64,000 nucleotides of DNA from Candidatus Gastranaerophilales bacterium (GCA_944325545.1 CALVAM010000011.1:2023-66022); one strand, 5' to 3'; shown: positions 14,601-33,878, numbered from the stretch's first letter. The notes: generated by a model from the sequence alone, not told the origin. Numbers and translations: made by a program.

Positions 14601-14685
14601 GTCATTCCGAATTTATTTCGGAATCTTATCAACTTAAGATTTAAACCTTTTTTATTGTAAGATGCTGAAACAAGTTCAGCATGAC
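14601..14685. repeat. Inverted pair of 26-nt GTCA-hairpin units (REP/dRS3-like element)
   Basis: GTCATTCCGAATTTATTTCGGAATCT at 14601-14626; the unit at 14660-14685 reads GTCATGCTGAACTTGTTTCAGCATCT on the minus strand. Confidence 0.75.
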
Positions 14686-14697: not shown

Positions 14698-14722
14698 CTA
14701 TTCACTACTCACTATTCACTAA
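14698..14722. repeat. Dispersed 25-nt heptamer element, copy 1 (CTATTCACTACTCACTATTCACTAA)
   Basis: Exact match to copies at 31351 and 33098; one mismatch to the copy at 31819. Confidence 0.9.
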
Positions 14723-15155
14723 CTTCATTTATCTTTCTAAGTCTACATCTTATTATGTATTCTATACCAAAAAATAAACCTACAAGCATATAGGAAATAA
14801 ATCCATTATATAAAATCCAAATCTCTTTTGATAAAAATACTGTTATAAGAGATACTAAAAAGTTTAAAAACATAAAAATAGACCAAAGATAAGTAAGATT
14901 TCTCGTGTATTTTAATACCCATTCTTTAGCGTCAGGCTCTATAGCTAAAGCAAATTTTTGAATAGCAGTTCTTTCTTGAAATATTGATGAAAAAAATACA
15001 ATAAAAAGTCCTAAATTTACCACAACAGGATAGTATTTAAAAAATATTAAATTCGTAAAATGAAATGCAAAAATTACCAAAAACATGGTAACAAAAGGCA
15101 AAATTGCTTTAAAAAATTTACCCAAGCAAGCCATAAACAGCTTCCACAATATCAT
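14712..15155 (-). CDS. COG4648-type membrane protein (ApeG-like)
   Basis: KYYPVVVN, FFSSIF, YTRNLTYLWSIF, W.LYNGFISYMLVG..FGIEY..R; start could be 15134. Confidence 0.82.
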   Translation of the reverse strand: MILWKLFMACLGKFFKAILPFVTMFLVIFAFHFTNLIFFKYYPVVVNLGLFIVFFSSIFQERTAIQKFALAIEPDAKEWVLKYTRNLTYLWSIFMFLNFLVSLITVFLSKEIWILYNGFISYMLVGLFFGIEYIIRCRLRKINEVSE

Positions 15156-15372
15156 TTACTGTTCTAATTTTTTTAAACTCATCAGGAGGTAATTTTTTAT
15201 CAGTAAATTTTTGCATTCTAACAGCAATATCTACCGCATCTATGCTATCTAAATCTAAATCCTCAAAAAGATTAGCTTCTAAATTTATAAGATTTTCATC
15301 AATCTCTAACTCTTCAACCAGGATATTAGTTAACTCATCAAGAATTTGTTCTTTTGTGATACTATTAGCCAT
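15118..15372 (-). CDS. Acyl carrier protein (ApeF-like)
   Basis: DLDLDSIDAVDI phosphopantetheine motif, FKKIRTVNDIV. Confidence 0.92.
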   Translation of the reverse strand: MANSITKEQILDELTNILVEELEIDENLINLEANLFEDLDLDSIDAVDIAVRMQKFTDKKLPPDEFKKIRTVNDIVEAVYGLLG

Positions 15373-15622
15373 TAATTTTCTCCTTAATGTATTCAGCTAA
15401 AGTATCAATAGAATAAAAATATTTCTTATTTTCTTCTTTATCGGAACTCAAAATTATATTAAATTTTCTTTTAATAGCCATACCAAGCTCTAAAGCATCA
15501 ATAGAATCCAATCCTAAACCTTCTCCAAATAAAGGTTCATCATTTTTTATATCATTAGGAGTTATGTCTTCTAACGCCAATGTTTCAATTATTAAATTTT
15601 TAATCTCTTCTCTTAATTCCAT
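15365..15622 (-). CDS. Acyl carrier protein (ApeE-like)
   Basis: PLFGEGLGLDSIDALELG, SIDTLAEYI. Confidence 0.92.
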   Translation of the reverse strand: MELREEIKNLIIETLALEDITPNDIKNDEPLFGEGLGLDSIDALELGMAIKRKFNIILSSDKEENKKYFYSIDTLAEYIKEKING

Positions 15623-15628
15623 ACCAGT

Positions 15629-15657
15629 ATTATATCATAAATTATATTTTAATACAA
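15629..15657 (-). promoter_or_regulatory. Sigma-70 promoter of the ape-like operon, probably leaderless
   Basis: Minus strand TTGTAT-N17-TATAAT with TGn extended -10; only 6 nt between the -10 and the ATG at 15622; no SD. Confidence 0.7.
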
Positions 15658-15659
15658 AA

Positions 15660-15684
15660 CAGGGCTAAATTATATTTAGCCCTG
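15660..15684 (-). terminator. Intrinsic terminator after the Hsp20 gene
   Basis: Perfect 11-bp stem CAGGGCTAAAT/ATTTAGCCCTG followed by TTTTG on the minus strand. Confidence 0.8.
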
Positions 15685-15708
15685 AAAAAGTTTAATTCTT
15701 ATTTTTAA

Positions 15709-16164
15709 TTAGTCTACAGTAAGTTTTTTAATGTTATCTTTCTTAAAATCAAGTTTAGGAGCAGTAATTTTTAAAATACCGTGTTCCAACTTAGCATTAG
15801 TTTTTTCAACATCAATTTCTTGAGGGAAATAAACAGTTCTAGAAAATTCACCATATCTGAATTCAGATTTTCTGTATCCTTTAGTATCTTCTTTTTGTTC
15901 TTCTTCTTTTTTTGCATTGATTGTTATATGGTTTTTATCAATATCGATATCCAAATCTTCCTTTTTAACTCCGGGAAGTTCAGCTTTTACACTATATTCA
16001 TTGTCTTTTTCGTGAAGTTCTACAGGCATTGCGAACTTGTCAACTTCTTCATTATAAATGTATTCTGGGAAAAAGCTGTCAAAATTTCTGTTTAAAATAG
16101 AACTGATTTCATCATTTACGGATTTTATAAACCCATCTGGTGATTTTTTAATTAAGAATTTCAT
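15709..16164 (-). CDS. Hsp20/alpha-crystallin small heat shock protein
   Basis: MPVELHE, AELPGVKKEDLDI, EFRYGEFSRTV.FP, AKLEHGILKIT.PK. Confidence 0.93.
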   Translation of the reverse strand: MKFLIKKSPDGFIKSVNDEISSILNRNFDSFFPEYIYNEEVDKFAMPVELHEKDNEYSVKAELPGVKKEDLDIDIDKNHITINAKKEEEQKEDTKGYRKSEFRYGEFSRTVYFPQEIDVEKTNAKLEHGILKITAPKLDFKKDNIKKLTVD

Positions 16165-16328
16165 GATGTTCTCCTTTCATATTTTATAAGTGTTTTTTTA
16201 ACATCTACTAACTTCAACACTTATATTATTACTCTGTTTTTCTAAAATTTAATTTTTTTAACCAAAAATTAACAATTCCCAATTTTATCTTGTTATGATA
16301 ATATTTTAAATAACTAAGGAGATTAATT

Positions 16329-17267
16329 ATGAGAGTGGGTTTTTTACAGAACTTAAGGAGTAAATTGGATGGGCTTTTTTCTGTACGCATGGTGGATGAA
16401 CATCTGGTAATACGATTATTTACTTTAAAATTTTGTAAAAAATTTGATTACAAATATGATTTTCAGCCTGCTAGTGAATACGGATTAAATCGAGAAATAC
16501 GAAATCCAAAAGTAATAGTTTCATTAACTACGTTTCCTGCAAGAATAGAAATTGTTTATAAAACAATAACAACAATTATGCAGCAATCAGTTAAACCGGA
16601 TAAAATAGTTTTATGGCTTGCAGAAGAACAGTTTCCGGATAAAAATTTACCTGAAAACCTTACGAGATTAGAACAATTTGGACTTACGATAAAATGGTGT
16701 GAAGATATTCGCTCATATAAAAAATTAATTCCATCATTAAAAGAATATCCTGATGATATTATTATTACATTAGATGATGATTATTATTATGATAAAGATT
16801 TATTAAAAACTTTAATAGAAGAACACAAAGAATATCCAAATTGTATTATAGCAAATAGAGCAATGCGTTTGATTGTTAAGAAAACTGGAAAGCATAGATT
16901 GCTAAAAAGAAGCTACATATACGATAGTTCATATTTACCAAGTTATAAAAATTTCTTTATAGGTTTTGGAGGAGTTTTATATCCGCCGCATTGTTTGTAT
17001 TCAGAAGTATTAGATAAAGAAAAATTTATGACAATAATACCAACAAATGATGATGCTTGGTTTTGGTTAAATGCAATAAGAAATAATACCAAAATTGTAC
17101 AATCAAGAAATGGATATAAATTAAAAATGTACCCTATTGAAAATTCACAAGAGCTTGGATTATATAAATTGAATTGCAATAATTCTCAATTAGGAATTAC
17201 AGGCGAAGTTGCTGCAAATATGTTCGCAGAACAATATCCTGATTTTAATTCACGCATTCACGAATAA
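16329..17267 (+). CDS. Glycosyltransferase (GT-A fold, GT2-like)
   Basis: VIVSLTTFPARI, PDKIVLWL, DIRSYKKLIP, ITLDDD (DxD-type), GFGGVLYPP, NDDAWFW. Confidence 0.85.
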   Translation: MRVGFLQNLRSKLDGLFSVRMVDEHLVIRLFTLKFCKKFDYKYDFQPASEYGLNREIRNPKVIVSLTTFPARIEIVYKTITTIMQQSVKPDKIVLWLAEEQFPDKNLPENLTRLEQFGLTIKWCEDIRSYKKLIPSLKEYPDDIIITLDDDYYYDKDLLKTLIEEHKEYPNCIIANRAMRLIVKKTGKHRLLKRSYIYDSSYLPSYKNFFIGFGGVLYPPHCLYSEVLDKEKFMTIIPTNDDAWFWLNAIRNNTKIVQSRNGYKLKMYPIENSQELGLYKLNCNNSQLGITGEVAANMFAEQYPDFNSRIHE

Positions 17268-17277
17268 ATTTATACAA

Positions 17278-18666
17278 TTAAACCGTAGCCATTTTTTCTT
17301 GAAGAGAGTGAGCAGAGTCTTCATATCCAGCTCTTCCCATAAGAGCATAAGTATAATTTTTAGCTTGTTCAACTCCGGGTTGGTTGAAAGTATTTATATT
17401 ATAAAGTTCTCCTGCTATTGCAGTTTGAACCTCTAACATATATAGTAGTTGAGCAACATTATATTCATCAATTTTTGGAATAGTAATCGTCATAGTAGGT
17501 CTTGAATAATCAGCTAAAGCAACTCTTGTAGAATCAGCTTCTGCATTGATTAAATCATTAATAGTTTTTCCGCCTAAATATCCAATTCCTGTGTATTCAA
17601 ATATTTTTGGAATTTCTAAAGTCGTATCAAAATTTTCAACTCTAATGAATGTAATAATTTTATTGTTAGGTCCTTCATTATAAAGCTGAATTTGAGAATG
17701 TTGATCAGTAGCACCGAGAGCTTTAATCGGAGTAGGTCCAATGTTAACTTTTTCTCCGTTATTATTGAATTCTTTACCTAAAGATTCAGCCCAAAGCTGA
17801 GCATACCAATCTGAAACATATTTTAATCTGCTTGAATATGGCATCATAACAGAAAGATTTTTACCTTTTTTTACGTCCATAAGATATTGGATTAAAGCTC
17901 CTTGAGCGGCGATATTTTGATAAATATCCGTATTTTTAAGTGCCAAATCCATGTCCTTAATGCCGTTCATAAGTTGGTCAATATCTAAACCAACTAAAGC
18001 AAAAGGTAAAAGTCCAACCGCTGAAAAAACTGAAAATCTACCGCCAACATCATCAGGAACAAAGAAAGTTTTAAAACCTTCTTGATCAGCAAGTTGTCTT
18101 AAAACTCCCATTTTTTTATCGGTAGTTGCAACAATATTCTTTCTATAATCGTCACCTAATTCTTTATACATCAAATCTTTAAGAATCATAAATTGTGACA
18201 TAGTTTCAGCCGTAGAGCCTGATTTTGTAATAACATTAACTAAAGTCTTTTTGAGATCTAGAATTTCTAAAAGCCCGCTAATAGTATCAGGATCAATATT
18301 ATCTAAAAAGAAAATTCTGGGAAGATTTCCTCTTTGTTCAGGAGTTAATAAATTCCAATAAGGTTTAAGTAATGCTTCTGTAACAGCAATTCCGCCAAGA
18401 GCAGAACCACCGATACCAAGAACTAAAATATTATCAAATCTATCTTCTACAAGTGAAGCAAATTCTTTAACATACCAAACAGTTTCTTCGTTGTAGCCTA
18501 AATTCATCCACTGTAGCCATTGACCATATTTATCTTTACGTTGATTTAAGCTTTTAATAATATCAGAGATTTTTTCTCTGTAGTTTTCAAATTCTTCATT
18601 AAGGTTTAAACCATTTTCTTCGCCGATAATTGATAAATCAGTGTTTTTATAATTTAGTTTAAGCAT
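17278..18666 (-). CDS. pgi: Glucose-6-phosphate isomerase
   Basis: LGIGGSALG, TKSGSTAET, DVGGRFSVFS, QLWAESLGK, DQHSQIQLY, FNQPGVEQAK. Confidence 0.96.
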   Translation of the reverse strand: MLKLNYKNTDLSIIGEENGLNLNEEFENYREKISDIIKSLNQRKDKYGQWLQWMNLGYNEETVWYVKEFASLVEDRFDNILVLGIGGSALGGIAVTEALLKPYWNLLTPEQRGNLPRIFFLDNIDPDTISGLLEILDLKKTLVNVITKSGSTAETMSQFMILKDLMYKELGDDYRKNIVATTDKKMGVLRQLADQEGFKTFFVPDDVGGRFSVFSAVGLLPFALVGLDIDQLMNGIKDMDLALKNTDIYQNIAAQGALIQYLMDVKKGKNLSVMMPYSSRLKYVSDWYAQLWAESLGKEFNNNGEKVNIGPTPIKALGATDQHSQIQLYNEGPNNKIITFIRVENFDTTLEIPKIFEYTGIGYLGGKTINDLINAEADSTRVALADYSRPTMTITIPKIDEYNVAQLLYMLEVQTAIAGELYNINTFNQPGVEQAKNYTYALMGRAGYEDSAHSLQEKMATV

Positions 18667-18824
18667 TTCAAATCCCTTATATAATACCCATATTTTAATT
18701 GTACTATTAACAATTATTTTTTCAAGGCATCAGTAAGGTAGAATGCATAATATAGCTTAGGTTTACAAAATTTTTTTTAAGAATATAATTATCTGCATAT
18801 AAAAATGTATATCAGGGGGTATAT

Positions 18825-19721
18825 GTGAAAATTTTATCTGTTAATTCTGTTGGTTATAGAAATAATAATTATCATCTAAAATTTAATAAAAATAACAAAA
18901 GTAATTTTTTACAATTAACTAATGAGCCTATCTCAACAGTAAATTTTAAAGGGATAAATACTTTATCTCAAAGTTTTGAATATGGTTTATCTTTGGAAGA
19001 ATTGAAAGACAGATTAAGTCCTGAAAAATATACAAAATGAGATTTATTATTTCCCAAAAGTATTGAATATAAAAGTTTAGCTGATGGGGATAAAAAAGCT
19101 TTAGCTCATTTAGTAAGAGCTTCTGAATATTTTAATGACGTTTATAAACGTTTAGATGATGTTCATAATTTAGAGTTTGAAAAATTTTTAGCAACAAGAA
19201 TTGCTCAAGGTGATGAAAAAGCTGTTTTGACTAAAAAACTTTATGATGGTCAAAAAGGTATAAATGCAAAATCTGTTGACGGGTCTGAAGTCAATTTAGC
19301 TAAAGGAATTAAAACAATTGCAGGAAAAGGGTTTTATACCCTTCAAAAACAAAAAGAGATTTTAACATCTTGGATAGTTGGATATTTACCTTTAGGAGCG
19401 GATTTAAGTAATGCACATAGAGCGAGAAATATTATGCAGTATAACTATTTTATCCAAAATGGCGGAATAAAATTTGATAGCAATGGTAAAATAAAAATAG
19501 ATTTTGCTAAAATTACTCAGTGCGGAGAAAAAATGCTTAATGATGCTATAAAGATACAATTAAGCAAAAGTGAAAAAATGGCAAAAGAATATATTGAAAA
19601 ATATGCTGTTTGGACAAAAGAATTGGATATACTTGCAAATAAACTGAAACCTATTGATAAAAGATTGAATTCTTATTTGTATTCTCCAATCGCAAAAGAA
19701 GTTTTGAAAAAAATAAAATAA
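18825..19721 (+). pseudogene. Disrupted paralogue of the M49-like peptidase at 50713-52605
   Basis: The two listed ORFs (18825-19040, 19227-19721) share one frame broken only by TGA at 19038-19040; the read-through aligns to the paralogue (LADGDKKALAHLV vs LADGDKEALKHLV) but skips about residues 176-504, including HExxH. Confidence 0.8.
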
Positions 19722-19806
19722 TTCCTAAGTTTCTTTGATGTATAATTAATTTAGATTATTTAAATATGTAAATCTCAATAAAGTTGATTAAAAAAGGGAA
19801 TTAATT

Positions 19807-22458
19807 ATGCTAAAAGGAAATGAAATCAGACAATTATATTTAGATTATTTTAAAAATAAGCATCAACATACTGTTGTAGAAAGTTCAAGTTTGGTGCCTG
19901 ATAATCCGACAGTATTATTAACAACTGCCGGAATGCTGCAGTTTTTACCAATCTTTTTAGGGATTCAGAAGTGCCCTTACGATCCTGCAAGAGCAACATC
20001 TTGTCAAAAATGTGCAAGAGCAGGCGGCAAGGATTCTGATATTGAAAATGTTGGAAGAACTCCAAGACATCATACCTTCTTTGAAATGTTAGGAAATTTT
20101 TCTTTTGGAGATTATTATAAAAAAGAAATTATTCCTTGGGCTTGGGAATTTGTAACTGAAGTTTTGAAATTAGATAAAGACAGACTTTGGATAACTATTT
20201 TTGAAACTGATGATGAAGCTTTTGATATTTGGAGAAGTGTTGGCGTTCCAGCTGAAAGAATAAAAAGAAAAGGTAAAAAAGATAATTTTTGGGGACCTCC
20301 CGGAGCTTCAGGTTCTTGTGGACCTTGCTCTGAAATTCATTATGATTTAGGCGAACAGTATAAGTGTTCTGATGACTGCGGTATTGATACTTGCGAATGT
20401 GATAGATGGGTTGAAATTTGGAACTTGGTATTCACAGAATTATACCAAGATGAAGAAGGCAATCAATCACCACTGGAAAAGAAAAACGTTGATACTGGCA
20501 TGGGCTTAGAACGTATCACAATGGTTTGTCAAGGTGTTGCTTCTACTTTTGAAACTGATTTATTGAAACCTATTTTGGATAAAGTTTCTGAAATGAGTGG
20601 AGTTCCTTACAAAAAATCTGAAAAAACGGATATTTCTTTAAGAATAATAACTGACCATGCAAGATGCGTTTCTTTCTTAATCTCTGATGGAGTAATTCCT
20701 GGAAATGAAGGAAGAAGTTATGTTTTAAGAATGATTTTAAGACGTGCATTAAGACACGGTAAAATTTTAGGTATGGATTTACCTTTTTTATACAAACTTG
20801 TTGATACAGTTGTTGAACATTATGGCGAAGCTTATCCTGATTTAGTTAAAAATAAAGCTAAAATCGTTGATGTTATTAAGAAAGAAGAAGAACGTTTTGC
20901 TAAGACTCTTGATAGAGGTTACAAAATGTTGGATGAATTTATATCTGAAAAGAAAGATATCGATGGCGAAAGTGCATTTAAACTTTATGATACCTATGGT
21001 TTCCCATTTGAATTAACAAAAGAAATTGCAGAAGAAAATTCTTTAAAAGTTGATGAAGAAGGATTTAAAGCAGCAATGCAAGAACAAAAAGAACGTGCAA
21101 AAGCTGCGACTGCAAAAATTTCTGTAACAGGCGATATTAAGTATGCAAAAGTAGAAGAAGAAGTTGGTTCAACTGAATTTGTAGGATATGAAGAAAATGT
21201 CTGTGAAGCTAAAGTTTTAGCATTAATCGAAGGAGAAGGTTTTGTAGACGTTGTATTAGATAAAACACCTTTCTACGCTGAATGCGGTGGACAAGTCGGC
21301 GATAGCGGTTTTATTTTTAATGAAAACTTAAAGGTAGAAGTTTTAACTACATTTAAAGTAAATCATTTATTTGTTCACAGATGCCAGGTTGTAAATGGTG
21401 AAATTAATGTCGGTGATATTGTGATTGCTCATATTGATACAAATAAACGCAAAGAAATAAGAGTTCACCATACATCAGCTCACTTACTTCAAGCAGCTTT
21501 GATTAAAGTTTTGGGAGATGAAGTAAAACAAGCAGGATCTCAAGTAGAAGAAAATCGTATGAGATTTGATTTTACATTCTCTCGTGCAATGACTCCTGAA
21601 GAAATTGTTAAAACCGAAGCTTTAATGAATGAATGGATAGATGATAAATTACCTGTTCAAACAGAAGTTATGGGAATAGAAGAGGCAAAACTTACCGGTG
21701 CTACTGCTTTATTTGGAGAAAAATACGAAGATGAAGTTCGTGTAGTATCAATTGGCGGAAAGAAAAAATGTCATTGCCATGGCGGAAAATGTAAAGGACA
21801 TCATAACCATCCTGAACATGAAGTTGTTTCAATGGAATTTTGTGCAGGAACTCATGCTAAAAATACAGGTGATTTAAGATTGGTTAAAATTATTTCAGAA
21901 GGTGCAATTGCAGCAGGAACAAGAAGAATTGAGCTTGTTGTTTCAAATGCGGCTATTGATTATTTAAATAAAAAATCTGCTGAAATTGATAAATTAGCTT
22001 CAAGATTTAAGCTACATTTTGATGAAGTAAATTCAAGAGTAGAAAAATTACTTGAAGAAAATCGTGAACTTCAAAAAGAATTGGAACAAACAAAAGCAGA
22101 TATGGCAAAATCTAAATTTGCAACATTTATTTCTAAAGCAGAAGAAATAGAAGGCGGTAAATTATTTGTATCAAAAATAGAAAATTTTGATGCCGATGCT
22201 GTTAAAGCAGGAATTGAAGCTCTTGCTAATAAATTAGGTGAATGTATTATAATCCTTGCAAATGAAAAGATGGTAATTTCAAAAGTTACTGAAGGCTTTG
22301 TCAAAAAAGGAATTAATGCAGGAAAATTAGTCGGTGAAATTGCAAGATATACAGGTGCTAATGGAGGCGGAAGACCTAATTTAGCTCAAGGCGGGGTTAA
22401 AGATTATACCAAGCTTGATGAAATTCTTGCTAAAATAGAGGCTGATTTAAAAGCTTAA
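19807..22458 (+). CDS. alaS: Alanine--tRNA ligase
   Basis: TTAGMLQF, HHTFFEMLGNFSFGDY, DTGMGLER, DHAR, LYDTYGFP, HTSAHLL, FCAGTH, GGGRPNLAQGG. Confidence 0.98.
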   Translation: MLKGNEIRQLYLDYFKNKHQHTVVESSSLVPDNPTVLLTTAGMLQFLPIFLGIQKCPYDPARATSCQKCARAGGKDSDIENVGRTPRHHTFFEMLGNFSFGDYYKKEIIPWAWEFVTEVLKLDKDRLWITIFETDDEAFDIWRSVGVPAERIKRKGKKDNFWGPPGASGSCGPCSEIHYDLGEQYKCSDDCGIDTCECDRWVEIWNLVFTELYQDEEGNQSPLEKKNVDTGMGLERITMVCQGVASTFETDLLKPILDKVSEMSGVPYKKSEKTDISLRIITDHARCVSFLISDGVIPGNEGRSYVLRMILRRALRHGKILGMDLPFLYKLVDTVVEHYGEAYPDLVKNKAKIVDVIKKEEERFAKTLDRGYKMLDEFISEKKDIDGESAFKLYDTYGFPFELTKEIAEENSLKVDEEGFKAAMQEQKERAKAATAKISVTGDIKYAKVEEEVGSTEFVGYEENVCEAKVLALIEGEGFVDVVLDKTPFYAECGGQVGDSGFIFNENLKVEVLTTFKVNHLFVHRCQVVNGEINVGDIVIAHIDTNKRKEIRVHHTSAHLLQAALIKVLGDEVKQAGSQVEENRMRFDFTFSRAMTPEEIVKTEALMNEWIDDKLPVQTEVMGIEEAKLTGATALFGEKYEDEVRVVSIGGKKKCHCHGGKCKGHHNHPEHEVVSMEFCAGTHAKNTGDLRLVKIISEGAIAAGTRRIELVVSNAAIDYLNKKSAEIDKLASRFKLHFDEVNSRVEKLLEENRELQKELEQTKADMAKSKFATFISKAEEIEGGKLFVSKIENFDADAVKAGIEALANKLGECIIILANEKMVISKVTEGFVKKGINAGKLVGEIARYTGANGGGRPNLAQGGVKDYTKLDEILAKIEADLKA

Positions 22459-22479
22459 GTTTAATTTTAATTTATTAGC

Positions 22480-22513
22480 GGCGAAGTTATTTTTAAATAA
22501 CTTCGCCTCTTTT
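22480..22513 (+). terminator. Intrinsic terminator after alaS
   Basis: Stem GGCGAAGTTATT/AATAACTTCGCC followed by TCTTTTT. Confidence 0.8.
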
Positions 22514-22587
22514 ATAATCTTGAAAATTTCAAAAAGTAATTTATAATTATATATATATTATATATGTAAATTTGAAAGGATTTAATT

Positions 22588-23070: not shown

Positions 23071-23179
23071 TCAGGGTATAAAAACTCTCCATTAACAACT
23101 TTACATTTTTTAATATAAAAGCAATTTTTTAATAAAAAACTACTTTATATTAGTAGTGTAGAAAAGTTGGAGTGTGTTT

Positions 23180-23863: not shown

Positions 23864-23883
23864 TTTATAGTATAATTTAGTTT

Positions 23884-24648: not shown

Positions 24649-24662
24649 ATAAGGAGTAAGAG

Positions 24663-25007: not shown

Positions 25008-25020
25008 GGAGTAATATTTA

Positions 25021-25302
25021 ATGAAAAAGATTTTAGCATTATTAATAGTTACAATACTATTTACATCAATAGTAAACGCAGCTCCGACAGAAGGTCGTCC
25101 AGGGAAAATTTCAGGTCGTTCAGTAGGAGCGGCTGCAGTTTCACTATTAATATGGCCGGGATTAGGACAACTTATCAATGATAATCCTTTAGATAAAAAT
25201 GTTACTCACGCTGTTTTAGGATTAACAGGAATATTTAGATTTTGGTCTTGTTATGACGCTTTTGTGGATAGAAAAGGCGGAGTTTGGCATAACAGAATTT
25301 AG
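25021..25302 (+). CDS. Small exported/membrane hypothetical protein
   Basis: Signal peptide, SLLIWPGLGQ TM2-like motif, FWSCYDAF. Confidence 0.75.
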   Translation: MKKILALLIVTILFTSIVNAAPTEGRPGKISGRSVGAAAVSLLIWPGLGQLINDNPLDKNVTHAVLGLTGIFRFWSCYDAFVDRKGGVWHNRI

Positions 25303-25310
25303 TAGGAACT

Positions 25311-26198
25311 ATGAAAAACAGAATTTTAGGAAATATAGCATTATTTTTAACTGCAATGATATGGGGACTTTCATTTGTTGCCCAAAGAGCAGGGATGGAA
25401 TTTATCGGACCATTTACATTTAATATGGTTAGAAGTTTTCTTGGTGCATTAAGTTTACTTCCTCTAATTTTTTGGGTAAAGTATTCAAAACCTGATACAA
25501 GAACTAAAAGACGAAAAAGATTTCAACATATAAATCTTGCAAGAGCCGGTATTGGTTGTGGTATTGCTTTATTTATTGCAATGTCGATTCAACAATATTG
25601 TATGCTCTATGCTACAGCAGGGAAAGCTGGGTTTATAACAGCTCTTTATATTATTTTTGTGCCTTTAATTTCGATTTTGCAAGGTGAAAAATTACAAAGA
25701 AATATTGTTATTAGCGTTATTTTAGCTACTGTTGGACTTTATTTATTATGTTATAAAACTGAAAGCGGTTTTAGTATTTATGACTTATTTTTACTAGTAG
25801 GTGCTTTTTTCTATGGGTTGCATATTCTTGTTGTAAATTATTATTCAGAAAGAGTAAATCCAATAAAAGCTTGTGCATTACAATTTTTTGTAGTTGGAGT
25901 ATTATCAACATTTTTAACGTTTATTTTTGAAACTCCTTCTATAAGTAGTATTATAGCTTGCAGAATTCCGATATTTTATGCAGGTGTATTAACTTGTGGT
26001 GTTGCATATACTTTACAAATATATGGACAAAAATATACAAAACCAATTATTGCAACTTTAATTTTATGTTTAGAATCTGTTTTTGCTGTAATAGGCGGAG
26101 TTTTAATTCTAGGCGAATCAATGATTCCGAAAGAAATTTTTGGTTGCATTTTTATGATTACGGCAGTAATTTTAGCTAATTTAAATAATAAAAATTAA
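25311..26198 (+). CDS. DMT/EamA family transporter
   Basis: AMIWGLSFVAQ, KAGFITALYIIFVP, LILCLESVFA; about 10 TM segments. Confidence 0.92.
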   Translation: MKNRILGNIALFLTAMIWGLSFVAQRAGMEFIGPFTFNMVRSFLGALSLLPLIFWVKYSKPDTRTKRRKRFQHINLARAGIGCGIALFIAMSIQQYCMLYATAGKAGFITALYIIFVPLISILQGEKLQRNIVISVILATVGLYLLCYKTESGFSIYDLFLLVGAFFYGLHILVVNYYSERVNPIKACALQFFVVGVLSTFLTFIFETPSISSIIACRIPIFYAGVLTCGVAYTLQIYGQKYTKPIIATLILCLESVFAVIGGVLILGESMIPKEIFGCIFMITAVILANLNNKN

Positions 26199-26271
26199 AA
26201 AATTCTATTATCTTAACAAAATTAAAGTCATGTGCTATTATATACAGGAATATAAAGAAGGAGAGAGTAAA

Positions 26272-27015
26272 ATGAATAAAACAGGCTTTACATTAGCGGA
26301 AGTTCTTGTAACTTTAGGAGTTATTGGAGTAGTTGCAGCATTAACTATTCCGGCATTAGAGCAAAATGTTGCATCATCAAAAGTCGGTCCTTCTTTAGCA
26401 AAAGCTGTTTCAAATTTTGAAAAAGCAAATCAAATGTTATTAACACAAAATGATGCAGCTTCTATTACAAATTTAATGGGTTCTGATTTTACTAAATCAG
26501 GAGAAGGCGGATATGGTGATAAATTATCTGAATATATTAAAATATCAATAGAAGAGCATCCTGAAAAAGTTCCTACATATAAGCAATATTTGAGTAATGA
26601 TGCTTATACAGCAGCTATTAATTCAGAAGAAATAAGTTCAGATTGGTCAGCAAATGCTTTCAAATCAGATGACGATATGATTTACTATATTTTCCCTGAA
26701 AGTAAAACGCTTCCAAATGGCTACAATAATATACCTTCAAACCAAAAAATTGGACAAGTATATGTTGATATAAATGGTTATAAAAAACCAAACAGACAAG
26801 CAAAAGATATTTTTAGATTTTACTTATATAACGATGGAACTTTAAGACCATATGGTGGAAAAGCTTTTGATAGAACTCAAGCAGAAGATAATTATCTTAA
26901 AAATGCTGAACTCAATTGGGCCGCAGGTGGTTGTAATGAAGAAAACGGAGCTGCTAAACCCGATACTTGTGCCGGTTCTGTATTTGATAATAATTTACGT
27001 GTTATTTATGAATAA
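26272..27015 (+). CDS. Type IV pilin-like / type II secretion pseudopilin
   Basis: Class III signal KTG^FTLAEVLVTLGVIGVVAALTIP with E+5; VYVDINGYKKPN motif; C-terminal Cys pair; ATG at 26272 behind GGAGAG. Confidence 0.9.
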   Translation: MNKTGFTLAEVLVTLGVIGVVAALTIPALEQNVASSKVGPSLAKAVSNFEKANQMLLTQNDAASITNLMGSDFTKSGEGGYGDKLSEYIKISIEEHPEKVPTYKQYLSNDAYTAAINSEEISSDWSANAFKSDDDMIYYIFPESKTLPNGYNNIPSNQKIGQVYVDINGYKKPNRQAKDIFRFYLYNDGTLRPYGGKAFDRTQAEDNYLKNAELNWAAGGCNEENGAAKPDTCAGSVFDNNLRVIYE

Positions 27016-27020
27016 GAAAA

Positions 27021-27039
27021 AAGGACATCAGATGTCCTT
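27021..27039 (-). terminator. Hairpin with a minus-strand U-tract (possible terminator of the flagellar operon)
   Basis: AAGGACATC-A-GATGTCCTT perfect inverted repeat; followed by TTTTC on the minus strand. Confidence 0.5.
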
Positions 27040-27083
27040 AAAAATGGTAAGTATATTAAAATTGTAGAATTTTTTATTTAACA

Positions 27084-27118
27084 CTGACACTCTTCATCCG
27101 TGAGGAGTGCCAGTTTTT
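27084..27118 (+). terminator. Intrinsic terminator with a plus-strand U-tract (pilin gene)
   Basis: CTGACACTCTTCA-TCCG-TGAGGAGTGCCAG imperfect 13-bp stem followed by TTTTT. Confidence 0.65.
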
Positions 27119-27121
27119 ATT

Positions 27122-28210
27122 TTATAGATAATTAAGTAAACTCATTCCCATAGAAGCAGATGATACTTGTAAACTGGCTTGGTAAGCATATTGAGCTTGA
27201 AACCAATCCGTAATTGCAGTAGTTAAATCAACATCTCGGATTTCAGATAAATATGAAGTTAAATTCATATTATTAGTATCTAAAGTAGATGTAGTCATTT
27301 CCAAACGATTATAAACTCCACCAAATTTAGTTTGTTCTTCAGTAATTGTCTTGAGAGAAGTATCAAACATGTCTAAAGTAGCGTTCATTTGTTCATAACC
27401 GGCTTCTGTATCACCATCAAGAACCATTTGGATAGAATTACTTAGCATTTTTAAAGCACCCATAACCCCAGAAGATTCTTCAGGAGCTCCATCAGTTAAA
27501 TCTCCAACATCACCTGTATATGCCATGCCATTTTCATAAGTATAAACAGGTTGACCTAATTCATCAGTAGTTTCAATTACCCTTTTCCCGTTTGCATCTG
27601 TATAGACTCCATTACCGGGCTCAACCGCAGCTTTATAGTATCCAAAAACTCTATCACCTGTCGTATTTATTACTTCAAAAACCCCGTCTGATACTTCGGT
27701 TTGTCTTATATAATCCTTGTTGTCATAAGGAGTACCGTTATAAACTACATCTCCATTTTCGGTTATTGTGTAAGGAACAGTTTTTGTATTAGCTCCTCCA
27801 AAAATAAAATTATCGTCATATTCAGTATTAGCTAAATCAACCATCGTCTTTAGAGTTTCATCTATTTCTACTTTTAAAGCTTGAAGAGAATCATTGCCAT
27901 AAGTTTGGTTATTAGCTTGCACCGCTTTATCCCACGCAGTTTGTAAATATCCTGTAGCAAGTGTCATTAAATCGTCTAATGAACTTAATTCACTTTTTGC
28001 CATTTCTACATTTGTAGAAAAAGTTTCGATTTGTCCTAATTGTCTATTGGTATTTAATATATTTACAGAAGCAATAGGATCATCTGTAATACTAAGAATT
28101 TTATGACCGGAACTTAATTGAGCATTAATTCGGTTATAATTGATAAGATTTTGTTGCATATCAGCTACTAATTGAGCATATCTTCCTGAAGTTGAAACTC
28201 TATCTACCAT
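27122..28210 (-). CDS. flgL: Flagellar hook-associated protein 3
   Basis: Flagellin-family termini: QLSSGHKI...DDPIA, FIFGG, FGGVYNRL, DVDLTTAI, MSLLNYL; follows flgK. Confidence 0.92.
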   Translation of the reverse strand: MVDRVSTSGRYAQLVADMQQNLINYNRINAQLSSGHKILSITDDPIASVNILNTNRQLGQIETFSTNVEMAKSELSSLDDLMTLATGYLQTAWDKAVQANNQTYGNDSLQALKVEIDETLKTMVDLANTEYDDNFIFGGANTKTVPYTITENGDVVYNGTPYDNKDYIRQTEVSDGVFEVINTTGDRVFGYYKAAVEPGNGVYTDANGKRVIETTDELGQPVYTYENGMAYTGDVGDLTDGAPEESSGVMGALKMLSNSIQMVLDGDTEAGYEQMNATLDMFDTSLKTITEEQTKFGGVYNRLEMTTSTLDTNNMNLTSYLSEIRDVDLTTAITDWFQAQYAYQASLQVSSASMGMSLLNYL

Positions 28211-28214
28211 CTTT

Positions 28215-29813
28215 CTAACCTCCTAATGTCATTAATACGTCAAGACAACTGTTACAAGTATTAAATACTTGTGCGGCTGCAGAATATGCTGTTTGATATT
28301 TCACTAAATCGACCAATTCTTCGTTTAAATCAACACCGCTTGTATTTTTAATTTTAGTAGCAACAGAATCAACTACACTAGTTTGTGTATCATATAATGT
28401 TTGCGTACTGCTGCCTGCAGATGCTACTTTCCCAACTAATGAAGTATAATAGCTTTCTAAAGACATTCCATTAAGAGCATCTTGCTTAGAATCCCTAGTT
28501 CCAAGCATTGCTACAACGTTTTGAGAATTTCCGACTGCATTTAAATCGACATTTGCAGGGTTTTCAAAATACGCACAAGAAATATTCCAAATCCCGTTAT
28601 CTGCCAGTAATGCATCATTTAACTTAATATTTCCTGCTGTAATTCCTGTTCCTGTACCGTCAGCTCCAACAAAAAGTAAATTGTCATCAGCACTGTCAAT
28701 TAATTTTTCTGTATCATTTGGGTCAATACAGTACGCACCTTCTCTTGTGTTTAATTCATTGAATATATCAGCTATAGTTTGTGCTAAAGTATCAAGACTT
28801 TCTCTAACAGTTCCGGCATTAGTTTCACCTTCTCCTGCTGTTGCAGAATGTAAAAGACCACCTAAGGTTCCCTCTGTTATCATTGAATTTGCATTTGAAA
28901 CTACTACTTTATTATTTTCTTCCGGATTAATTATACTTATAACCGCATTTTCTCCATCCCAATCATCAGGATAAGCTATCGGAGGATTTTGGGATTCACA
29001 ATAAGTCTTTGCAGTTTGAATATCAAGCTTGCCGACTACTTTTGAACCCTTAACTACTTCTGTAGTACCAATTGATACGTTAACTGTACCATTATGTTTT
29101 TCCTCTACAGAAATATCAACATATTGAGCAATGTCATTTAAAATCATATCGCGTTTATCAAGCAAATTATTTGCTTCTAAAGTACCTGTCTGAGTTACTT
29201 GTAAAGCTCTATTTATATCTGCTAATTCTGTTAATTTATCATTTAATGCTGTATATTGAACATATATTTTGGAATTTTCTAAAGATTCTTGATTTTCACC
29301 ATCACCAAGGGCTTTTGTTGTTAATTCATCTAACTCAATACTTTTTGAATTCATGACTGATGTTAGAGTCTTAGCAGTTTCTATAAAGTTAGTTCTGGCT
29401 GTAGAACTTGCAGGATATTCATTTAAATTGTTTAAAGCTTCATAAAAATCACTTAGAGCTGCATCTAAGCCTTCGCCTTCTAAATCATCCAGAATATCTG
29501 CTAAATCATTTAAAGTATCAAGTTGTTGATCCAATTTATTTTGTGTAGACAACTGATCTCTATAATAATTGTTTAAATAAGAATCAGTGTATCTCATAAC
29601 GTTAGCTATCATGACTCCGCCATTTGACCGAATTTGAGCAACAACATTATCTCCTATAGCTCCGCCAATATTTCTCGTAGCAAGGTTGACTTTTTGTTTT
29701 GAATAGCCTTCTGTATTCATATTAGAAACGTTATGTGATACTACACTAATGGCTTGTTCGTTTACTGAAAGTGTATTAGCAGTCATATTAAGCGATGATA
29801 ATAAGCTAACCAT
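28215..29813 (-). CDS. flgK: Flagellar hook-associated protein 1
   Basis: VSHNVSNMNTEGYSKQ, PASSTAR, NNLLDKRD, SGVDLNEELVDLVKYQTAYSAAAQV. Confidence 0.96.
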   Translation of the reverse strand: MVSLLSSLNMTANTLSVNEQAISVVSHNVSNMNTEGYSKQKVNLATRNIGGAIGDNVVAQIRSNGGVMIANVMRYTDSYLNNYYRDQLSTQNKLDQQLDTLNDLADILDDLEGEGLDAALSDFYEALNNLNEYPASSTARTNFIETAKTLTSVMNSKSIELDELTTKALGDGENQESLENSKIYVQYTALNDKLTELADINRALQVTQTGTLEANNLLDKRDMILNDIAQYVDISVEEKHNGTVNVSIGTTEVVKGSKVVGKLDIQTAKTYCESQNPPIAYPDDWDGENAVISIINPEENNKVVVSNANSMITEGTLGGLLHSATAGEGETNAGTVRESLDTLAQTIADIFNELNTREGAYCIDPNDTEKLIDSADDNLLFVGADGTGTGITAGNIKLNDALLADNGIWNISCAYFENPANVDLNAVGNSQNVVAMLGTRDSKQDALNGMSLESYYTSLVGKVASAGSSTQTLYDTQTSVVDSVATKIKNTSGVDLNEELVDLVKYQTAYSAAAQVFNTCNSCLDVLMTLGG

Positions 29814-29871
29814 TTTTACCTCATTTCTGATTTAAGCTTGTTCTTTAGAGCCTATAGGCTTACATTTACCT

Positions 29872-30369
29872 CTAGACTTCTTCATTTATGGTCCACATGT
29901 CTATATCATGTGTGTCTGTTTTTCCTGCTCCATTATAATTACATCCTTGAGGAGCAAAAGCATCAATAATTGTTTCCAACATCTTGTTAGATATTATTAT
30001 GCCATGTTTCAAGAGTTCCACATTTTGATTATTTAATAACGTTAACTCGGGAATAATGTTACAAATCTTTACTTTTCTTTCTTCTAATGCAGGAACAAAT
30101 TCCGGTGCGTGTTCCTTTGCATATCCTATAAAACGGGACATGTTAACATTTTCTCCCATTAATTCTATGGAGATTTTTTCTCTTGATTGATTAAGTTTAG
30201 TGATTTCATTATTTAATGCAACAATTCTATTATCTACATTTCCTAATTCATCAGCTTTTGATTGTTTCAAGATTTCTTTTTTTTCTTCAAACAAATCTCT
30301 TAGTCTTGAATATGCATCAATTTCTTTATCTAAGATTTCTATTAAGTTGTAAAATATTTTTTTATCCAT
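29872..30369 (-). CDS. flgN: Flagellar export chaperone FlgN
   Basis: Helical protein (EIDAY..L, LNNQNVELL) immediately upstream of flgK. Confidence 0.75.
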   Translation of the reverse strand: MDKKIFYNLIEILDKEIDAYSRLRDLFEEKKEILKQSKADELGNVDNRIVALNNEITKLNQSREKISIELMGENVNMSRFIGYAKEHAPEFVPALEERKVKICNIIPELTLLNNQNVELLKHGIIISNKMLETIIDAFAPQGCNYNGAGKTDTHDIDMWTINEEV

Positions 30370-30411
30370 TTATATCCTTGTATTAACTTGTTTTTAATAT
30401 GTTCAAACACC

Positions 30412-31020
30412 TTAGAATAAGTATTTGATGAATCTATTGAATATACCTTCGTTTTGGTTTCTGGAAATTGTACCTCTTCCTGATAATGCAAATTGTAGAT
30501 TAGAAACATTATAAGAGTATATTTCACCATCTACATTAAGCCATCTTGGATCTATAACGCCTGTTACAATGAAGTCCATTCTTTCATTTCCGTTTACAAG
30601 CGTCTTTTTACCTTGTACTGCTAAATTTCCATTAGGAAGTTGTTGAACGACTTGAACTGCAATTTGGTCTCCGAAAGACATTGTCCGCCCGCCAGCTGCG
30701 GAATTTGATACTTCATTTGTTCCGCCAAAACCGTCAGAATCTTTAAAAGATAAGCCAAACCATTTATTAAAAAATGACGTAAAAGTATCCACTGTATTAG
30801 AAGATTTTTCTGATGAATATGTTAAATTATCGCTTACTGTAATGTTTTCAGCCATAATTATAGAGATTAAATCGCCCACTTGCCTTGCTTGAACCCCTCC
30901 AAACAAAGAACGTGGAACGCCTGAATAATTTTGACTAGCTCCCAGTGTAAACAATGATTCAGCGTTTACTGTCATTATTGACATCGTTAATATTATCAAA
31001 CTTACAATGAACTTTTTCAT
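30412..31020 (-). CDS. flgH: Flagellar L-ring protein
   Basis: SLF...ARQVGDLISI, VVQQLPNGNLAVQG.K, ITGVIDP. Confidence 0.88.
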   Translation of the reverse strand: MKKFIVSLIILTMSIMTVNAESLFTLGASQNYSGVPRSLFGGVQARQVGDLISIIMAENITVSDNLTYSSEKSSNTVDTFTSFFNKWFGLSFKDSDGFGGTNEVSNSAAGGRTMSFGDQIAVQVVQQLPNGNLAVQGKKTLVNGNERMDFIVTGVIDPRWLNVDGEIYSYNVSNLQFALSGRGTISRNQNEGIFNRFIKYLF

Positions 31021-31047
31021 CTTATTATCCTCTTTATCCCTAAAAAT

Positions 31048-31323
31048 TTAGCAAAGATATTCCGCTATAACACTTCTACCGTATAATAAACCGTATTTTA
31101 TGTCATCATCCGAAATATTGAATTCTCCAACAGATTTAGCACATTCTCTCAATTCATCCACATCAATTTTATCTAACAAACTTACATTTGAAGTAGTATT
31201 AAGCCCTTGAGAATGTTGAACAACATCCATTTCCTCTTGTTTTGGAGGATTTTGAGCTGTTTTAAATGCGTTTAATGCACTAAATTGTTGTACTGAATTA
31301 TTTTGTCCTATTGATGATAACAT
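31048..31323 (-). CDS. Hypothetical protein inside the flagellar operon
   Basis: 91-aa ORF with AAAGGA RBS between flgJ and flgH; no FlgM signature recognised. Confidence 0.75.
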   Translation of the reverse strand: MLSSIGQNNSVQQFSALNAFKTAQNPPKQEEMDVVQHSQGLNTTSNVSLLDKIDVDELRECAKSVGEFNISDDDIKYGLLYGRSVIAEYLC

Positions 31324-31350
31324 TATTTATTCCTTTCGTAGTTTATAATT

Positions 31351-31375
31351 CTATTCACTACTCACTATTCACTAA
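31351..31375. repeat. 25-nt heptamer element, copy 2
   Basis: CTATTCACTACTCACTATTCACTAA exact. Confidence 0.9.
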
Positions 31376-31418
31376 TTACTTTTTCTTTATTTTTATTAAG
31401 CTTTTTACTCATTCTTAC

Positions 31419-31772
31419 TTAATTTCCGACGTATTTTTCCATTTGTCTGTAGATTTGATCTGCAAATCCAAAAGACGTTCTCGGATTGTTTGCAATATCA
31501 TGTCCCATTTGTTGGTATACTATTGATTTAAATGTATCAACGTAGTGAGTTTCTTTTCCAAATAGTCCATTTTCTCTATCAACAGTTTTGTCCATTTGGG
31601 AAAGCATTTTGGTTATAAAAATACTTTCAAATTCTGTTGCAGCTTTTCTTAACTGTTCTTTAGAATCACTTGAACCTTTAATTTGGTTATACAAAACTTG
31701 ATCTGAATTAACTGTCTGAGCATTTTGTAAACCGCTTTTTATTAAATCTATTGTAGGAGTTGAAAAATCCAT
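31419..31772 (-). CDS. flgJ: Single-domain FlgJ (rod-binding domain only)
   Basis: LRKAATEFESIFITKMLSQM.KTV and SFGFADQIYRQM; no muramidase domain. Confidence 0.85.
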   Translation of the reverse strand: MDFSTPTIDLIKSGLQNAQTVNSDQVLYNQIKGSSDSKEQLRKAATEFESIFITKMLSQMDKTVDRENGLFGKETHYVDTFKSIVYQQMGHDIANNPRTSFGFADQIYRQMEKYVGN

Positions 31773-31811
31773 ATTATCCTTTCATTATTGAATAGTTTAT
31801 AAGATAAATTT

Positions 31812-31843
31812 CTATTTACTATTCACTACTCACCATTCACTAA
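31812..31843. repeat. 25-nt heptamer element, copy 3 (one mismatch plus an extra heptamer)
   Basis: CTATTTA-CTATTCACTACTCACCATTCACTAA directly abutting the flgI stop. Confidence 0.85.
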
Positions 31844-32947
31844 TTAAATTATTACTAAATCAGCTTGTAAGCTTCCTGATTTTTTAAGTGCTTGTAAGAT
31901 AGAAATTAAATCAACAGGTGCAACTCCAATTGAATTTAAAGCTCTTACTAAATCATTAAGATTACTATTTGCAGGCATTGTAACTAAACTACCCGGAGCT
32001 TTGTTAATTTCTATATCAGAATTTTCAAACCCAACAGTCGCACCATTTGCAAACGCATTGGGTTGAGAAACATCGTTTGTTGTTGAAACTGTAACGGTTA
32101 TGTTACCGTGAGCTACCGCTGCAGGAAGTAATTTAACATCTGCTCCGATTACGACAGTTCCTGTTCTTTCATTAACAACAACTTTTGCTCTATCCATTGT
32201 TGGTGAAACTTCCAAATTTTCTAGAATAGAGATAAAAGTCACTCTATCATTCATGAATTTAGCAGGGATTTCCACTCTTACTGAACTTCCGTCAATAGCT
32301 TGAGCCGGTGCTATTTGAGATACTGATTTTGCAATTCTTGATACAAGAGTATAATCAGAACGGTCAATTGATAATGTAATAGAATTTTCATCACCGATTT
32401 CTGTATAAATATCTCTTTCAATTATTGCTCCACCAGGGATTCTGCCTGTTGTAGTAATAGCAGTTCTTGCAGAAGAACCTCCGGCTATTTTATTAATCCC
32501 ACCAACAGATAAAGGTCCTTGAGCTACCGCTACTGCTTCTCCGTTTGGTGCTTTTAAAATAGTTTGAACTAAAACTCCACCCTCTAAGCTCTTACAGTCT
32601 GCCATTGCTGATACTGTTACGTCGATTTTATCACCATTTTTAGAAAACGGAGGAACTGTTGCTGTTACTATTACTGCAGCAGAAGCCCCTTTTTGGATGT
32701 AGTTTTCTTGATCAATTACAGTACCTAAATTTCTTAATAACATTTTATTAGTAATCTGTGTAGAACGAGAATTATCACCTGTTCCAGGAAGACCAACTAC
32801 TACACCATAGCCTACTAATTGGTTTTCTCTAACTCCCTTAATATGAGTCAAATCCATGATTCTTACTTTTGCATCTATTGCTCTGCAAGGTAATAACCCT
32901 GTTAACATCATAAATATTACTAATAAACTTGATAAAACTTTTTTCAT
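31844..32947 (-). CDS. flgI: Flagellar P-ring protein
   Basis: GVRENQLVGYGVVVGLPGTGD, DCKSLEGGVL, VVVNERTGTVVIG, DLISILQALKKSGSL. Confidence 0.97.
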   Translation of the reverse strand: MKKVLSSLLVIFMMLTGLLPCRAIDAKVRIMDLTHIKGVRENQLVGYGVVVGLPGTGDNSRSTQITNKMLLRNLGTVIDQENYIQKGASAAVIVTATVPPFSKNGDKIDVTVSAMADCKSLEGGVLVQTILKAPNGEAVAVAQGPLSVGGINKIAGGSSARTAITTTGRIPGGAIIERDIYTEIGDENSITLSIDRSDYTLVSRIAKSVSQIAPAQAIDGSSVRVEIPAKFMNDRVTFISILENLEVSPTMDRAKVVVNERTGTVVIGADVKLLPAAVAHGNITVTVSTTNDVSQPNAFANGATVGFENSDIEINKAPGSLVTMPANSNLNDLVRALNSIGVAPVDLISILQALKKSGSLQADLVII

Positions 32948-32971
32948 ATACTTACCTTTTTTGTTTTGAGT

Positions 32972-33129
32972 TATGAGTGAGGAGTGAGGTGAAACGAGAA
33001 ATTTATTTCAAATTTTTCTTTTCTATTCACTATTTACTAATTACTACTTTTAACACCCTCTTCACTCATCACACCTCGCACATCACTTTTTACTAATCTA
33101 TTCACTACTCACTATTCACTAATCACTTT
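32972..33129. repeat. Degenerate heptamer tract between flgA and flgI, containing 25-mer copy 4 (33098-33122) and an oppositely oriented AGTGAGG run
   Basis: TCAC/TTAC units at about 7-nt period from 33023; TGAGTGAGGAGTGAGGTGA at about 32974-32992 in the other orientation. Confidence 0.8.
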
Positions 33130-33834: not shown

Positions 33835-33878
33835 CTACTACTTACCTTTTTGTTTTGAGACTCTAACTTTCTTATGAA

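Follow-up and report, generated by a model that had tools for sequence, protein, structure and literature searches.

Heptamer repeats of the short tandemly repeated repetitive (STRR) type have been known since 1990, the units of STRR1, STRR2 and STRR3 being CCCCAGT, TTGGTCA and CAACAGT. Rehm et al. 2015 (PMC4692102) described heptamer arrays of about four units that were mostly intergenic, lay near the upstream open reading frame (ORF) and often formed convergent pairs. These arrays kept the same gene location in related species with variable length, most of those of Xanthomonas were transcribed, and heptamer simple repeats were over-represented in many bacteria; neither a function nor a link to mobile elements was assigned. 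The supplement to that study includes a four-unit GGGAATC array (repeat #15) located 6 nucleotides (nt) after bccP and overlapping the start codon of XCC0516, as well as an inverted array pair between groES and groEL. Tandem heptamers are also present in the 23S rRNA intervening sequence (IVS) of Coxiella, where a Shine-Dalgarno sequence and 3-4 heptamers directly precede the S23p ATG, heptamer number varies between strains, an RNase III site is located at the first repeat, and the IVS is regarded as selfish (Warrier et al. 2016, PMC4990558). Here we describe a heptamer family in a 64,000-nt stretch of DNA from a Candidatus Gastranaerophilales bacterium (GCA_944325545.1, CALVAM010000011.1:2023-66022; hereafter the window), where a 25-nt element, TTAGTGAATAGTGAGTAGTGAATAG, recurs next to stop codons of flagellar and lipid genes. 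Its four copies are probably fixed and partly decayed remnants of an IVS-like foldback element, each representing the 5' arm of a derivative that lacks the ORF.

Like STRR of Calothrix and Nostoc and the GGGAATC and GGGGA(C/T)T arrays of Xanthomonas and Nostoc, the arrays described here have about four heptamers (28 nt) and are dispersed and mostly intergenic. They also share with published heptamer arrays a position nearer the end of the upstream ORF, convergent inverted pairs, retention at the same gene junctions in related species with variable length, and the lack of a link to a known transposase. Unlike STRR, their unit is GTGANNN and their host is a non-photosynthetic gut member of the Gastranaerophilales, not a heterocystous cyanobacterium. 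In contrast to the Xanthomonas and Nostoc arrays, GTGANNN is A+T-rich, which makes a G-quadruplex impossible. Published heptamer families also differ in that the present arrays belong to discrete hairpins with conserved loops, and in that the link to a four-helix-bundle gene cassette was not drawn in earlier work.

The 25-mer is present on the window's minus strand as exact copies at 14698-14722, 31351-31375 and 33098-33122 and with one mismatch at 31819-31843, and none was expected by chance (100 shuffles). This confirmed the positions and the single orientation within the window reported in the first-pass annotation, and the gene relations described there also hold when read on the minus strand. 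ORF 14712-15155, the apeG-like gene, enters the array by 2.5 codons and terminates at the array TAG at 14712-14714, and its final four codons (EVSE) and stop are array-derived. FlgI (PF02119) ends in TAA, followed by 'tta' and the array. The 25-mer begins 7 nt past the FlgA stop and 43 nt past the stop of a FlgJ-like rod-binding gene. Pfam searches of the window proteins supported FlgI, FlgA, the rod-binding FlgJ-like protein, FlgG, FlgF and FlgH. A TGA or TAG every 7 nt closes all three frames in each array, as had been proposed, and we judge this to be a by-product. A known RNA family was rejected as an identity for the element, with no Rfam match in the window.

A genome-wide family and its hairpin anatomy

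The window belongs to a metagenome-assembled genome (MAG) of 1.82 Mb in 37 contigs with 29.5% G+C, in which contigs break at repeats; relatives of its FlgI are all from Gastranaerophilales/Melainabacteria gut MAGs. The 25-mer was found genome-wide in 14 exact copies, 30 copies with up to one mismatch and 103 with up to three. We identified 85 (GTGANNN)n arrays with at least three perfect cores, whereas unrelated 4-mers placed with equal spacing gave 0-3. With at least 11 of 12 core matches there were 96 arrays, 67 of which had exactly four units. Two sub-types could be distinguished, an AT type, GTGA[AGTC]TA, and a GC type, GTGA[AG]G[N]. The first-pass annotation had favoured an RNA-level signal with a spreading STRR-like repeat as a fallback, and it is the fallback that our analysis supports.

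Two of the 96 arrays were inside called genes and 24 were at contig ends. In co-directional gaps the arrays read with transcription in 27 cases and against it in 19 (p = 0.30), which rules out a fixed sense orientation and indicates that the element is not a sense-strand signal. The 5' side of the GTGA strand was turned towards a gene end in 58 cases and towards a gene start in 31 (p = 0.0055), and it was the 5' side of 20 arrays, versus the 3' side of one, that overlapped or lay within 15 nt of a stop (p = 2e-5). Among internal-gap arrays, 17 had a stop no more than 15 nt away, where 3.5-4.1 were expected and none of 2000 randomisations gave more than 12. Divergent (promoter) gaps were depleted, accounting for 4 of 41 array-bearing gaps versus 276 of 931 other gaps (280 of 972 overall; p = 0.004). 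For six genes the 3' end falls within an array, and a further ten genes stop 2-6 nt short of one. The first-pass annotation had suggested testing for bias in strand and stop distance, and had taken random orientation and position relative to genes as the pattern that would speak against its reading; orientation to transcription was indeed not fixed, but position near stops was clearly non-random. Operon-embedded copies such as those of the window are a minority of the 30 25-mers with up to one mismatch; most are deep inside long intergenic mosaics, where 16 follow a repetitive extragenic palindromic (REP) module.

Comparison with sister species revealed the complete form of the element. Sister-species units of 95-118 nt consist of (TA)-(GTGANNN)4 joined to (NNNTCAC)4 by a 45-60-nt AT-rich loop that ends in ..CAC, and are placed exactly between the stop and the ribosome-binding site (RBS) at flgI|flgJ, at flgJ|next and at the following junction. 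Hairpin loops are common to copies within one genome and across genomes, and complete sister-species hairpins fold at -28.5 kcal/mol (z -3.5) and -38.9 kcal/mol (z -6.3). The variable positions of the unit are lineage-specific (xTA, xTC or RGN). Other species have the same architecture with 8-mer arms (AAGTGACT, GGGAATAA, TGGAAGNN), and yet others have an empty 10-25-nt spacer at these sites. Paired arms are found in relatives and in part of the window genome, where most copies comprise the 5' arm, then GAAATTT.. and a degenerate right part. A foldback reads alike on both strands, so that whichever gene precedes it meets the GTGA arm first, which explains the polarity of the arrays. TA often flanks both ends of the element, but TA is also part of the repeat unit.

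The distribution of the family is patchy. In a genus sample of 25 genomes, GTGA arrays were present in some species, with 84 matches in the window genome and 386, 50, 40 and 30, respectively, in four further genomes, while many had no match; they were absent from the genomes searched in other families of the order. At the 14698 site, the orthologues in three congeners end earlier with a stop/start overlap (ATGA) and no spacer, and in the window genome a mosaic of about 165 nt, comprising the array and two small hairpin modules, parts genes that overlap in relatives. At the flgI|flgJ site, complete hairpins are located at the same position in sister species, and many sister species whose FlgI is 90-94% identical have no element at these sites.

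Elsewhere in the genome, pairs of heptamer arms separate the ribosomal-protein genes rpsM and rpsK and recur downstream of them (contig C1:16300-17366), which indicates that elements are tolerated in highly expressed essential operons. Another arm pair adjoins a putative tRNA gene (GGCGTCCTTAGTTCAGTTGGTAGAACGTCGG..; contig C20:34994-35062). The short-read assembly is broken by the repeat mosaics.

Association of the arms with a four-helix-bundle gene

We searched for outward-facing array pairs 150-6000 nt apart and inspected the intervening content. Between arm pairs there were only housekeeping genes, an XRE-like small gene and a four-helix-bundle gene. The last is the sole PF05635 gene of the genome, and is located outside the window at contig C21 8378-8626, in the groES-groEL spacer between inverted arms (cassette C21:8247-8670). 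The GC-type arm of this cassette stops 7 nt before the ATG, and the inverted arm is downstream. The gene is truncated, encoding 84 aa compared with 114-123 aa in relatives, and the remainder is in the +1 frame (an apparent frameshift).

The cassette recurs at this groES-groEL site in seven congeners, with four arm types. The order is GroES stop, four-unit 5' arm, a gap of 0-23 nt (no more than 12 nt in all but one congener), the ORF from ATG to stop, 0-4 nt, 3' arm, RBS and groEL. The arms, counted from their sequences, are near-perfectly complementary with the variable positions included (30/32, 31/35 and 33/35). Cassettes with the arm unit GTGARGN (genomes G000 and G020) have ORFs that are 82% identical, those with GTTAATAA (G023 and G015) 80%, those with AGTGAYYA (G004 and G018) 76% and those with GTGAxTA (G012 and G010) 70%; identity for the remaining pairs is 61-78%. 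G004 and G015 have GroEL proteins that are 99.5% identical and identical GroES (100%), yet their arms differ and their ORFs are 68% identical. G023 and G015 have the same arms, with GroEL at 96.3%. Arm type therefore tracks the ORF and not the host flanks, which suggests that the ORF and its arms travel, or are replaced, as a unit.

Cassettes and ORF-less copies also have the inner junction after the arm in common, GxxCATT for the GC type and GATATT/GAAATT for the AT type. AATAAG-type 8-mer arrays are numerous where the cassette bears them (58 in G015 and 17 in G023), and in genomes without GTGA arrays PF05635 genes are bracketed by inverted four-unit arrays of other 7-8-mers. We extended this comparison to the phylum Cyanobacteriota, drawing 150 genomes and examining the 30 best PF05635 loci, with an arm score of at least 10 counted. 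Inverted tandem 7-8-mer arms were present at 23 of these 30 loci and at none of 28 displaced control windows, where the maximum score was 9 (p = 2e-10). Rfam scans of 20 cassette loci gave no match to an rRNA gene and no other match.

The four-helix-bundle protein corresponds to TIGR02436 ('four helix bundle protein') and has weak similarity to Avd of diversity-generating retroelements. Among solved structures the nearest relative is Xanthomonas campestris XCC0516 (2GSC, with five chains in the entry). According to the published data cited above, comparable arms accompany the gene at XCC0516 and in the Coxiella 23S IVS. A limited literature search found no paper joining this protein family to STRR-type repeats. 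Like the ORF-bearing 23S rRNA IVS of Coxiella burnetii and Leptospira, the C21 cassette and its seven congener counterparts have complementary arms that enclose a PF05635 ORF, with heptamers before the ATG. They differ from the IVS in their location, which is the groES-groEL mRNA spacer and not helix 25 or 45 of 23S rRNA. The four window copies differ further, as they have no ORF and mostly no 3' arm.

Strain variation and neighbouring repeats in the window

To follow the window sites over short distances, we compared strains whose FlgJ or ACP proteins are identical. Every strain sampled had all four window arrays, and unit number varied: 2 or 4 at flgI|flgJ, 3 or 4 at flgJ|orf91, 4 or 5 at flgA|flgI, and 3 or 4 at the 14698 site. 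Close species differ in their arrays by indels of exactly 7 or 14 nt. Three alternative fillers occupy the second half of the flgA|flgI spacer, a GC-type foldback at 32970-33086 being replaced elsewhere by either of two unrelated fillers. The flgG|flgA spacer (window 33834-34171) measures 86, 187, 194, 336 or 390 nt among strains, and a 54-nt unit has a copy number of 1, 3.3 or 4.3. Constant presence together with variable unit number suggests that these are fixed insertions which now evolve by slippage and local replacement.

All elements of the window described here are on the minus strand. At 14698-14722, the 25-mer represents three GTGANNN units of an AT-type arm and supplies the stop of ORF 14712-15155; two small hairpin modules, GTCATGCTGAACTTGTTTCAGCATC and GATTCCGAAATAAATTCGGAATGAC, at 14601-14685 were inserted together with it, forming the mosaic of about 165 nt. 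The arm at 31351-31379, between the FlgJ-like gene and orf91, has four units, of which the first is degenerate (GTAATTA). It is followed by GAATTATAAACT and then an RBS, there is no convincing 3' arm at this site, and the copy folds at -4.8 kcal/mol (z -2.1). The four-unit arm at 31813-31843 begins 3 nt past the flgI stop, retains a vestigial 3' arm (CTATTCA) before the flgJ RBS, and folds at -10.9 kcal/mol (z -1.25). The four-unit arm at 33098-33126 begins 3 nt past the flgA stop. The sequence of array, leader GAATTATRAACTACGAAAGGAATAAATA and first ~20 codons of orf91 (MLSSIGQNNS.QQF) at window 31323-31379 is repeated at contig C8:69236-69270, which suggests a paralogue or a duplicated 5' region of orf91.

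Two further elements had not been reported in the first-pass annotation. The first is the complete ORF-less GC-type foldback at 32970-33086, an arm pair with 5' arm GTGATGTGCGAGGTGTGATGAGTGAAGA (33059-33086), a 68-nt loop and a 3' arm of TCAC units (32970-32990), which folds at -24.2 kcal/mol (z -2.0). The other is a tandem repeat at 33990-34169, which begins 4 nt past the flgG stop and comprises 3.3 copies of the 54-nt unit, each with six GTGANNN heptamers and GATTGTTAAAAA. A GC-rich module, CCCCGCCCCTTGAGGGAGGGGGCTAGGGGGTGGGGTT, at 33877-33913 accompanies arrays in many mosaics of the genome.

The arrays are one module of mosaics that resemble bacterial interspersed mosaic elements (BIMEs) and contain several other small repeats; 39 of the 96 arrays are 15 nt downstream of the REP sequence GTAGGGTGCAATTTTTTGCACC. 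Like REP, BIME and REPIN elements (Bertels and Rainey 2011, PMC3116915), they are small extragenic repeats in mosaics, form inverted doublets that give long hairpins, and are located at gene 3' ends. Unlike those of REP/REPIN systems with their REP-associated tyrosine transposases (RAYTs), the heptamer arm is a tandem repeat and not a GTAG-headed palindrome, and there is no RAYT with cognate heptamer arms. The genome has two RAYT-like Y1 transposase genes outside the window (C18:367-906 and C2:155859-156395), each flanked by inverted GTAG-headed REP hairpins (GTAGGGTGCA..TGCACC for C18 and GTAGGATGCGGTAAATC.. for C2), and no heptamer arms flank either gene. RAYT presence across the genus does not track array abundance, and no RAYT was detected in G021, which is the genome richest in arrays and is 80% complete. 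We therefore rejected a RAYT as the mobiliser, since the RAYTs are flanked by other REP families and are present in congeners with and without arrays. Many genomes of the order carry copies of the 14601-14685 modules; near-identical copies of GATTCCGAAATAAATTCGGAATGAC and of GTCAYSCTGAA..TTCAGSRTGAC are present in its other families, and these modules are spread much more widely than the heptamer arms. A limited literature search found no paper joining Melainabacteria to REP-type repeats.

Origin of the arrays and rival explanations

The family is most likely selfish DNA and not a dedicated RNA signal, because it has spread through non-coding DNA and is tied to an IVS-type four-helix-bundle gene. 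The basic element opens with TA and four GTGANNN units and closes with four NNNTCAC units, around a loop of about 45-60 nt that is AT-rich, and the 25-mer is its outward-facing 5' arm. Within one Gastranaerophilales genus it has multiplied in some of the species, being retained only between genes. Within operons it would lodge between a stop and the next RBS, and insertion at or just inside a gene 3' end would close the frame at once. Since the arm carries stops in all three frames, arms abut or supply gene stops, and stop proximity follows because the GTGA arm faces outwards and tight operons tolerate inserts only between stop and RBS. The short elements are probably ORF-less derivatives of a cassette of about 450 nt, in which arms of the same kind surround the PF05635/TIGR02436 gene of the 23S rRNA IVS; this derivation, and past mobility, are inferred. 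The window copies would be old insertions that have lost or degraded the 3' arm and change mainly by slippage of whole 7-nt units. They are probably without a dedicated function: none is required, given that the arrays are missing from sister species and that arms are free to decay and stutter. To account for the data, a dedicated ribosome-release role or stop cassette is superfluous. By analogy with the IVS, complete hairpins may undergo cutting of an RNase III type or may stabilise RNA, and such effects would be incidental.

Such elements resemble MITEs (miniature inverted-repeat transposable elements) in being about 100 nt long, ORF-less and present in many copies, with terminal inverted repeats, filled and empty sites between species, and a longer ORF-bearing relative with the same ends. 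Complete terminal inverted repeats of this type are found in sister species and at 32970-33086, and the four 25-mer copies have the 5' arm only. Unlike in MITEs, each terminal repeat is made of tandem 7-8-mers, which within a lineage vary in concert, and the longer relative encodes a four-helix-bundle protein and no known transposase.

Several observations weigh against this origin. No transposase was found between any arm pair of the genome (array pairs 150-6000 nt apart), which also excludes a transposon with array ends. Target-site duplication is not evident. Among the strains sampled the four window arrays showed changes of unit number and no filled/empty polymorphism, so that mobility is deduced from between-species comparison alone. 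The genome's own four-helix-bundle gene is broken and GC-type-armed, whereas the 25-mer is AT-type, and no PF05635 match was present in G021, which has the most arrays (386 matches) and is 80% complete, or in the likewise array-rich and incomplete G019. The 14 exact 25-mers suggest recent copying or homogenisation, a poor fit with old decayed relics. The position counts depend on our own crude gene calls from ORFs and codon usage (1773 genes, 89% coding), and with 24 of the 96 arrays at contig ends the census is incomplete and the copy number a lower bound.

We also considered that the arrays might have been domesticated as intercistronic RNA elements, transcribed hairpins or perhaps solo arms that, as signals for processing or stability, adjust how strongly adjacent cistrons are expressed relative to one another. 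Such elements might be cleaved by RNase III, block a 3' exonuclease or, where a stop is no more than 15 nt away, stall ribosomes. Their exact placement in the stop-to-RBS gap of operons for flagella, ribosomal proteins, chaperonins and lipids is consistent with such a role, as are the site-specific loop that the flgI|flgJ element keeps across several species and the presence of arrays at all four sites in every sampled strain. Homologous 23S IVS stems are RNase III substrates (PMC4990558), and transcription of most Xanthomonas arrays (PMC4692102) points in the same direction. However, many sister species with FlgI 90-94% identical lack the element at these sites, orientation to transcription is variable (27 versus 19), unit number and the adjoining filler vary freely between strains, and window copies without a 3' arm fold little better than shuffles (z -1.25 and -2.1). 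We regard domestication as unlikely. More doubtful still is a periodic protein-binding site, with four GUGA/UAG motifs 7 nt apart read by an oligomeric HutP- or TRAP-like protein or by a four-helix-bundle protein. In the hut leader, HutP is bound to UAG triplets separated by 4 nt, a geometry that only AT-type arms have, and the first-pass annotation had noted the likeness to the RNA ligand used in HutP structural work. The GTGA core and 7-nt spacing are conserved while the other three positions vary, unit number peaks sharply at four, arm type co-varies with the four-helix-bundle ORF, and the entry for the closest solved relative of that protein, 2GSC, contains five chains. The analogy with HutP failed, however: there is no HutP homologue in the genome (a control genome matched), GC-type arms keep GUGA and have no UAG, and the arrays are not in a leader. 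The only four-helix-bundle gene of the genome is, moreover, broken.

Two further explanations fared worse. If the array were a selected all-frame stop cassette, retained after genes to end read-through or frameshifted translation, the TGA/TAG in three frames that it carries by construction and the six called genes that end in an array, with ten more 2-6 nt ahead, would be expected. This nevertheless appears very improbable, as the inverted NNNTCAC arm of the same element has no such stops and the arm units of other lineages, such as GGGAATAA and GTTGAAAG, are stop-free. Most arrays, too, are tens to hundreds of nt from gene ends, some of them in divergent gaps, and the same genes lack arrays in sister species. 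A plain microsatellite, arising by slippage independently at each site and having no identity as an element, would account for the 7- or 14-nt length changes between strains and species, and would fit the general abundance of heptamer simple repeats in bacteria (PMC4692102). It is the explanation to which we give least credence, being disfavoured by the flanks (TTA before and GAAATTT after), loops and inverted partner that copies share; in addition, units of one array differ at NNN, the length peak at four units is sharp, and unrelated 4-mers yield 0-3 arrays.

An IVS-like foldback origin for the four window copies is hence the reading we prefer. More tentatively, and as a possibility we do not rate as likely, the arms and the four-helix-bundle gene might form one transposase-free foldback system, in which the PF05635 protein reads its own arms of stuttered 7-8-nt units and promotes copying or maintenance of both the cassette and the ORF-less hairpins. 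STRR, the GGGAATC arrays, the 23S IVS and the repeats described here would then be one class of elements that colonise transcribed junctions. The heptamer families of the STRR, Xanthomonas and Nostoc types have no assigned origin or function, and the rRNA-IVS protein is likewise an orphan. This genus offers a natural series, with a groES-groEL site carrying four arm types and their matching genes, hundreds of ORF-less hairpins, and empty sister sites, which makes two ideas testable: an origin of the short repeats from the cassette, and recognition by the protein of the arms that belong to it. On the practical side, the arrays disrupt short-read assemblies, can rewrite gene 3' ends, and offer length polymorphisms for strain typing.

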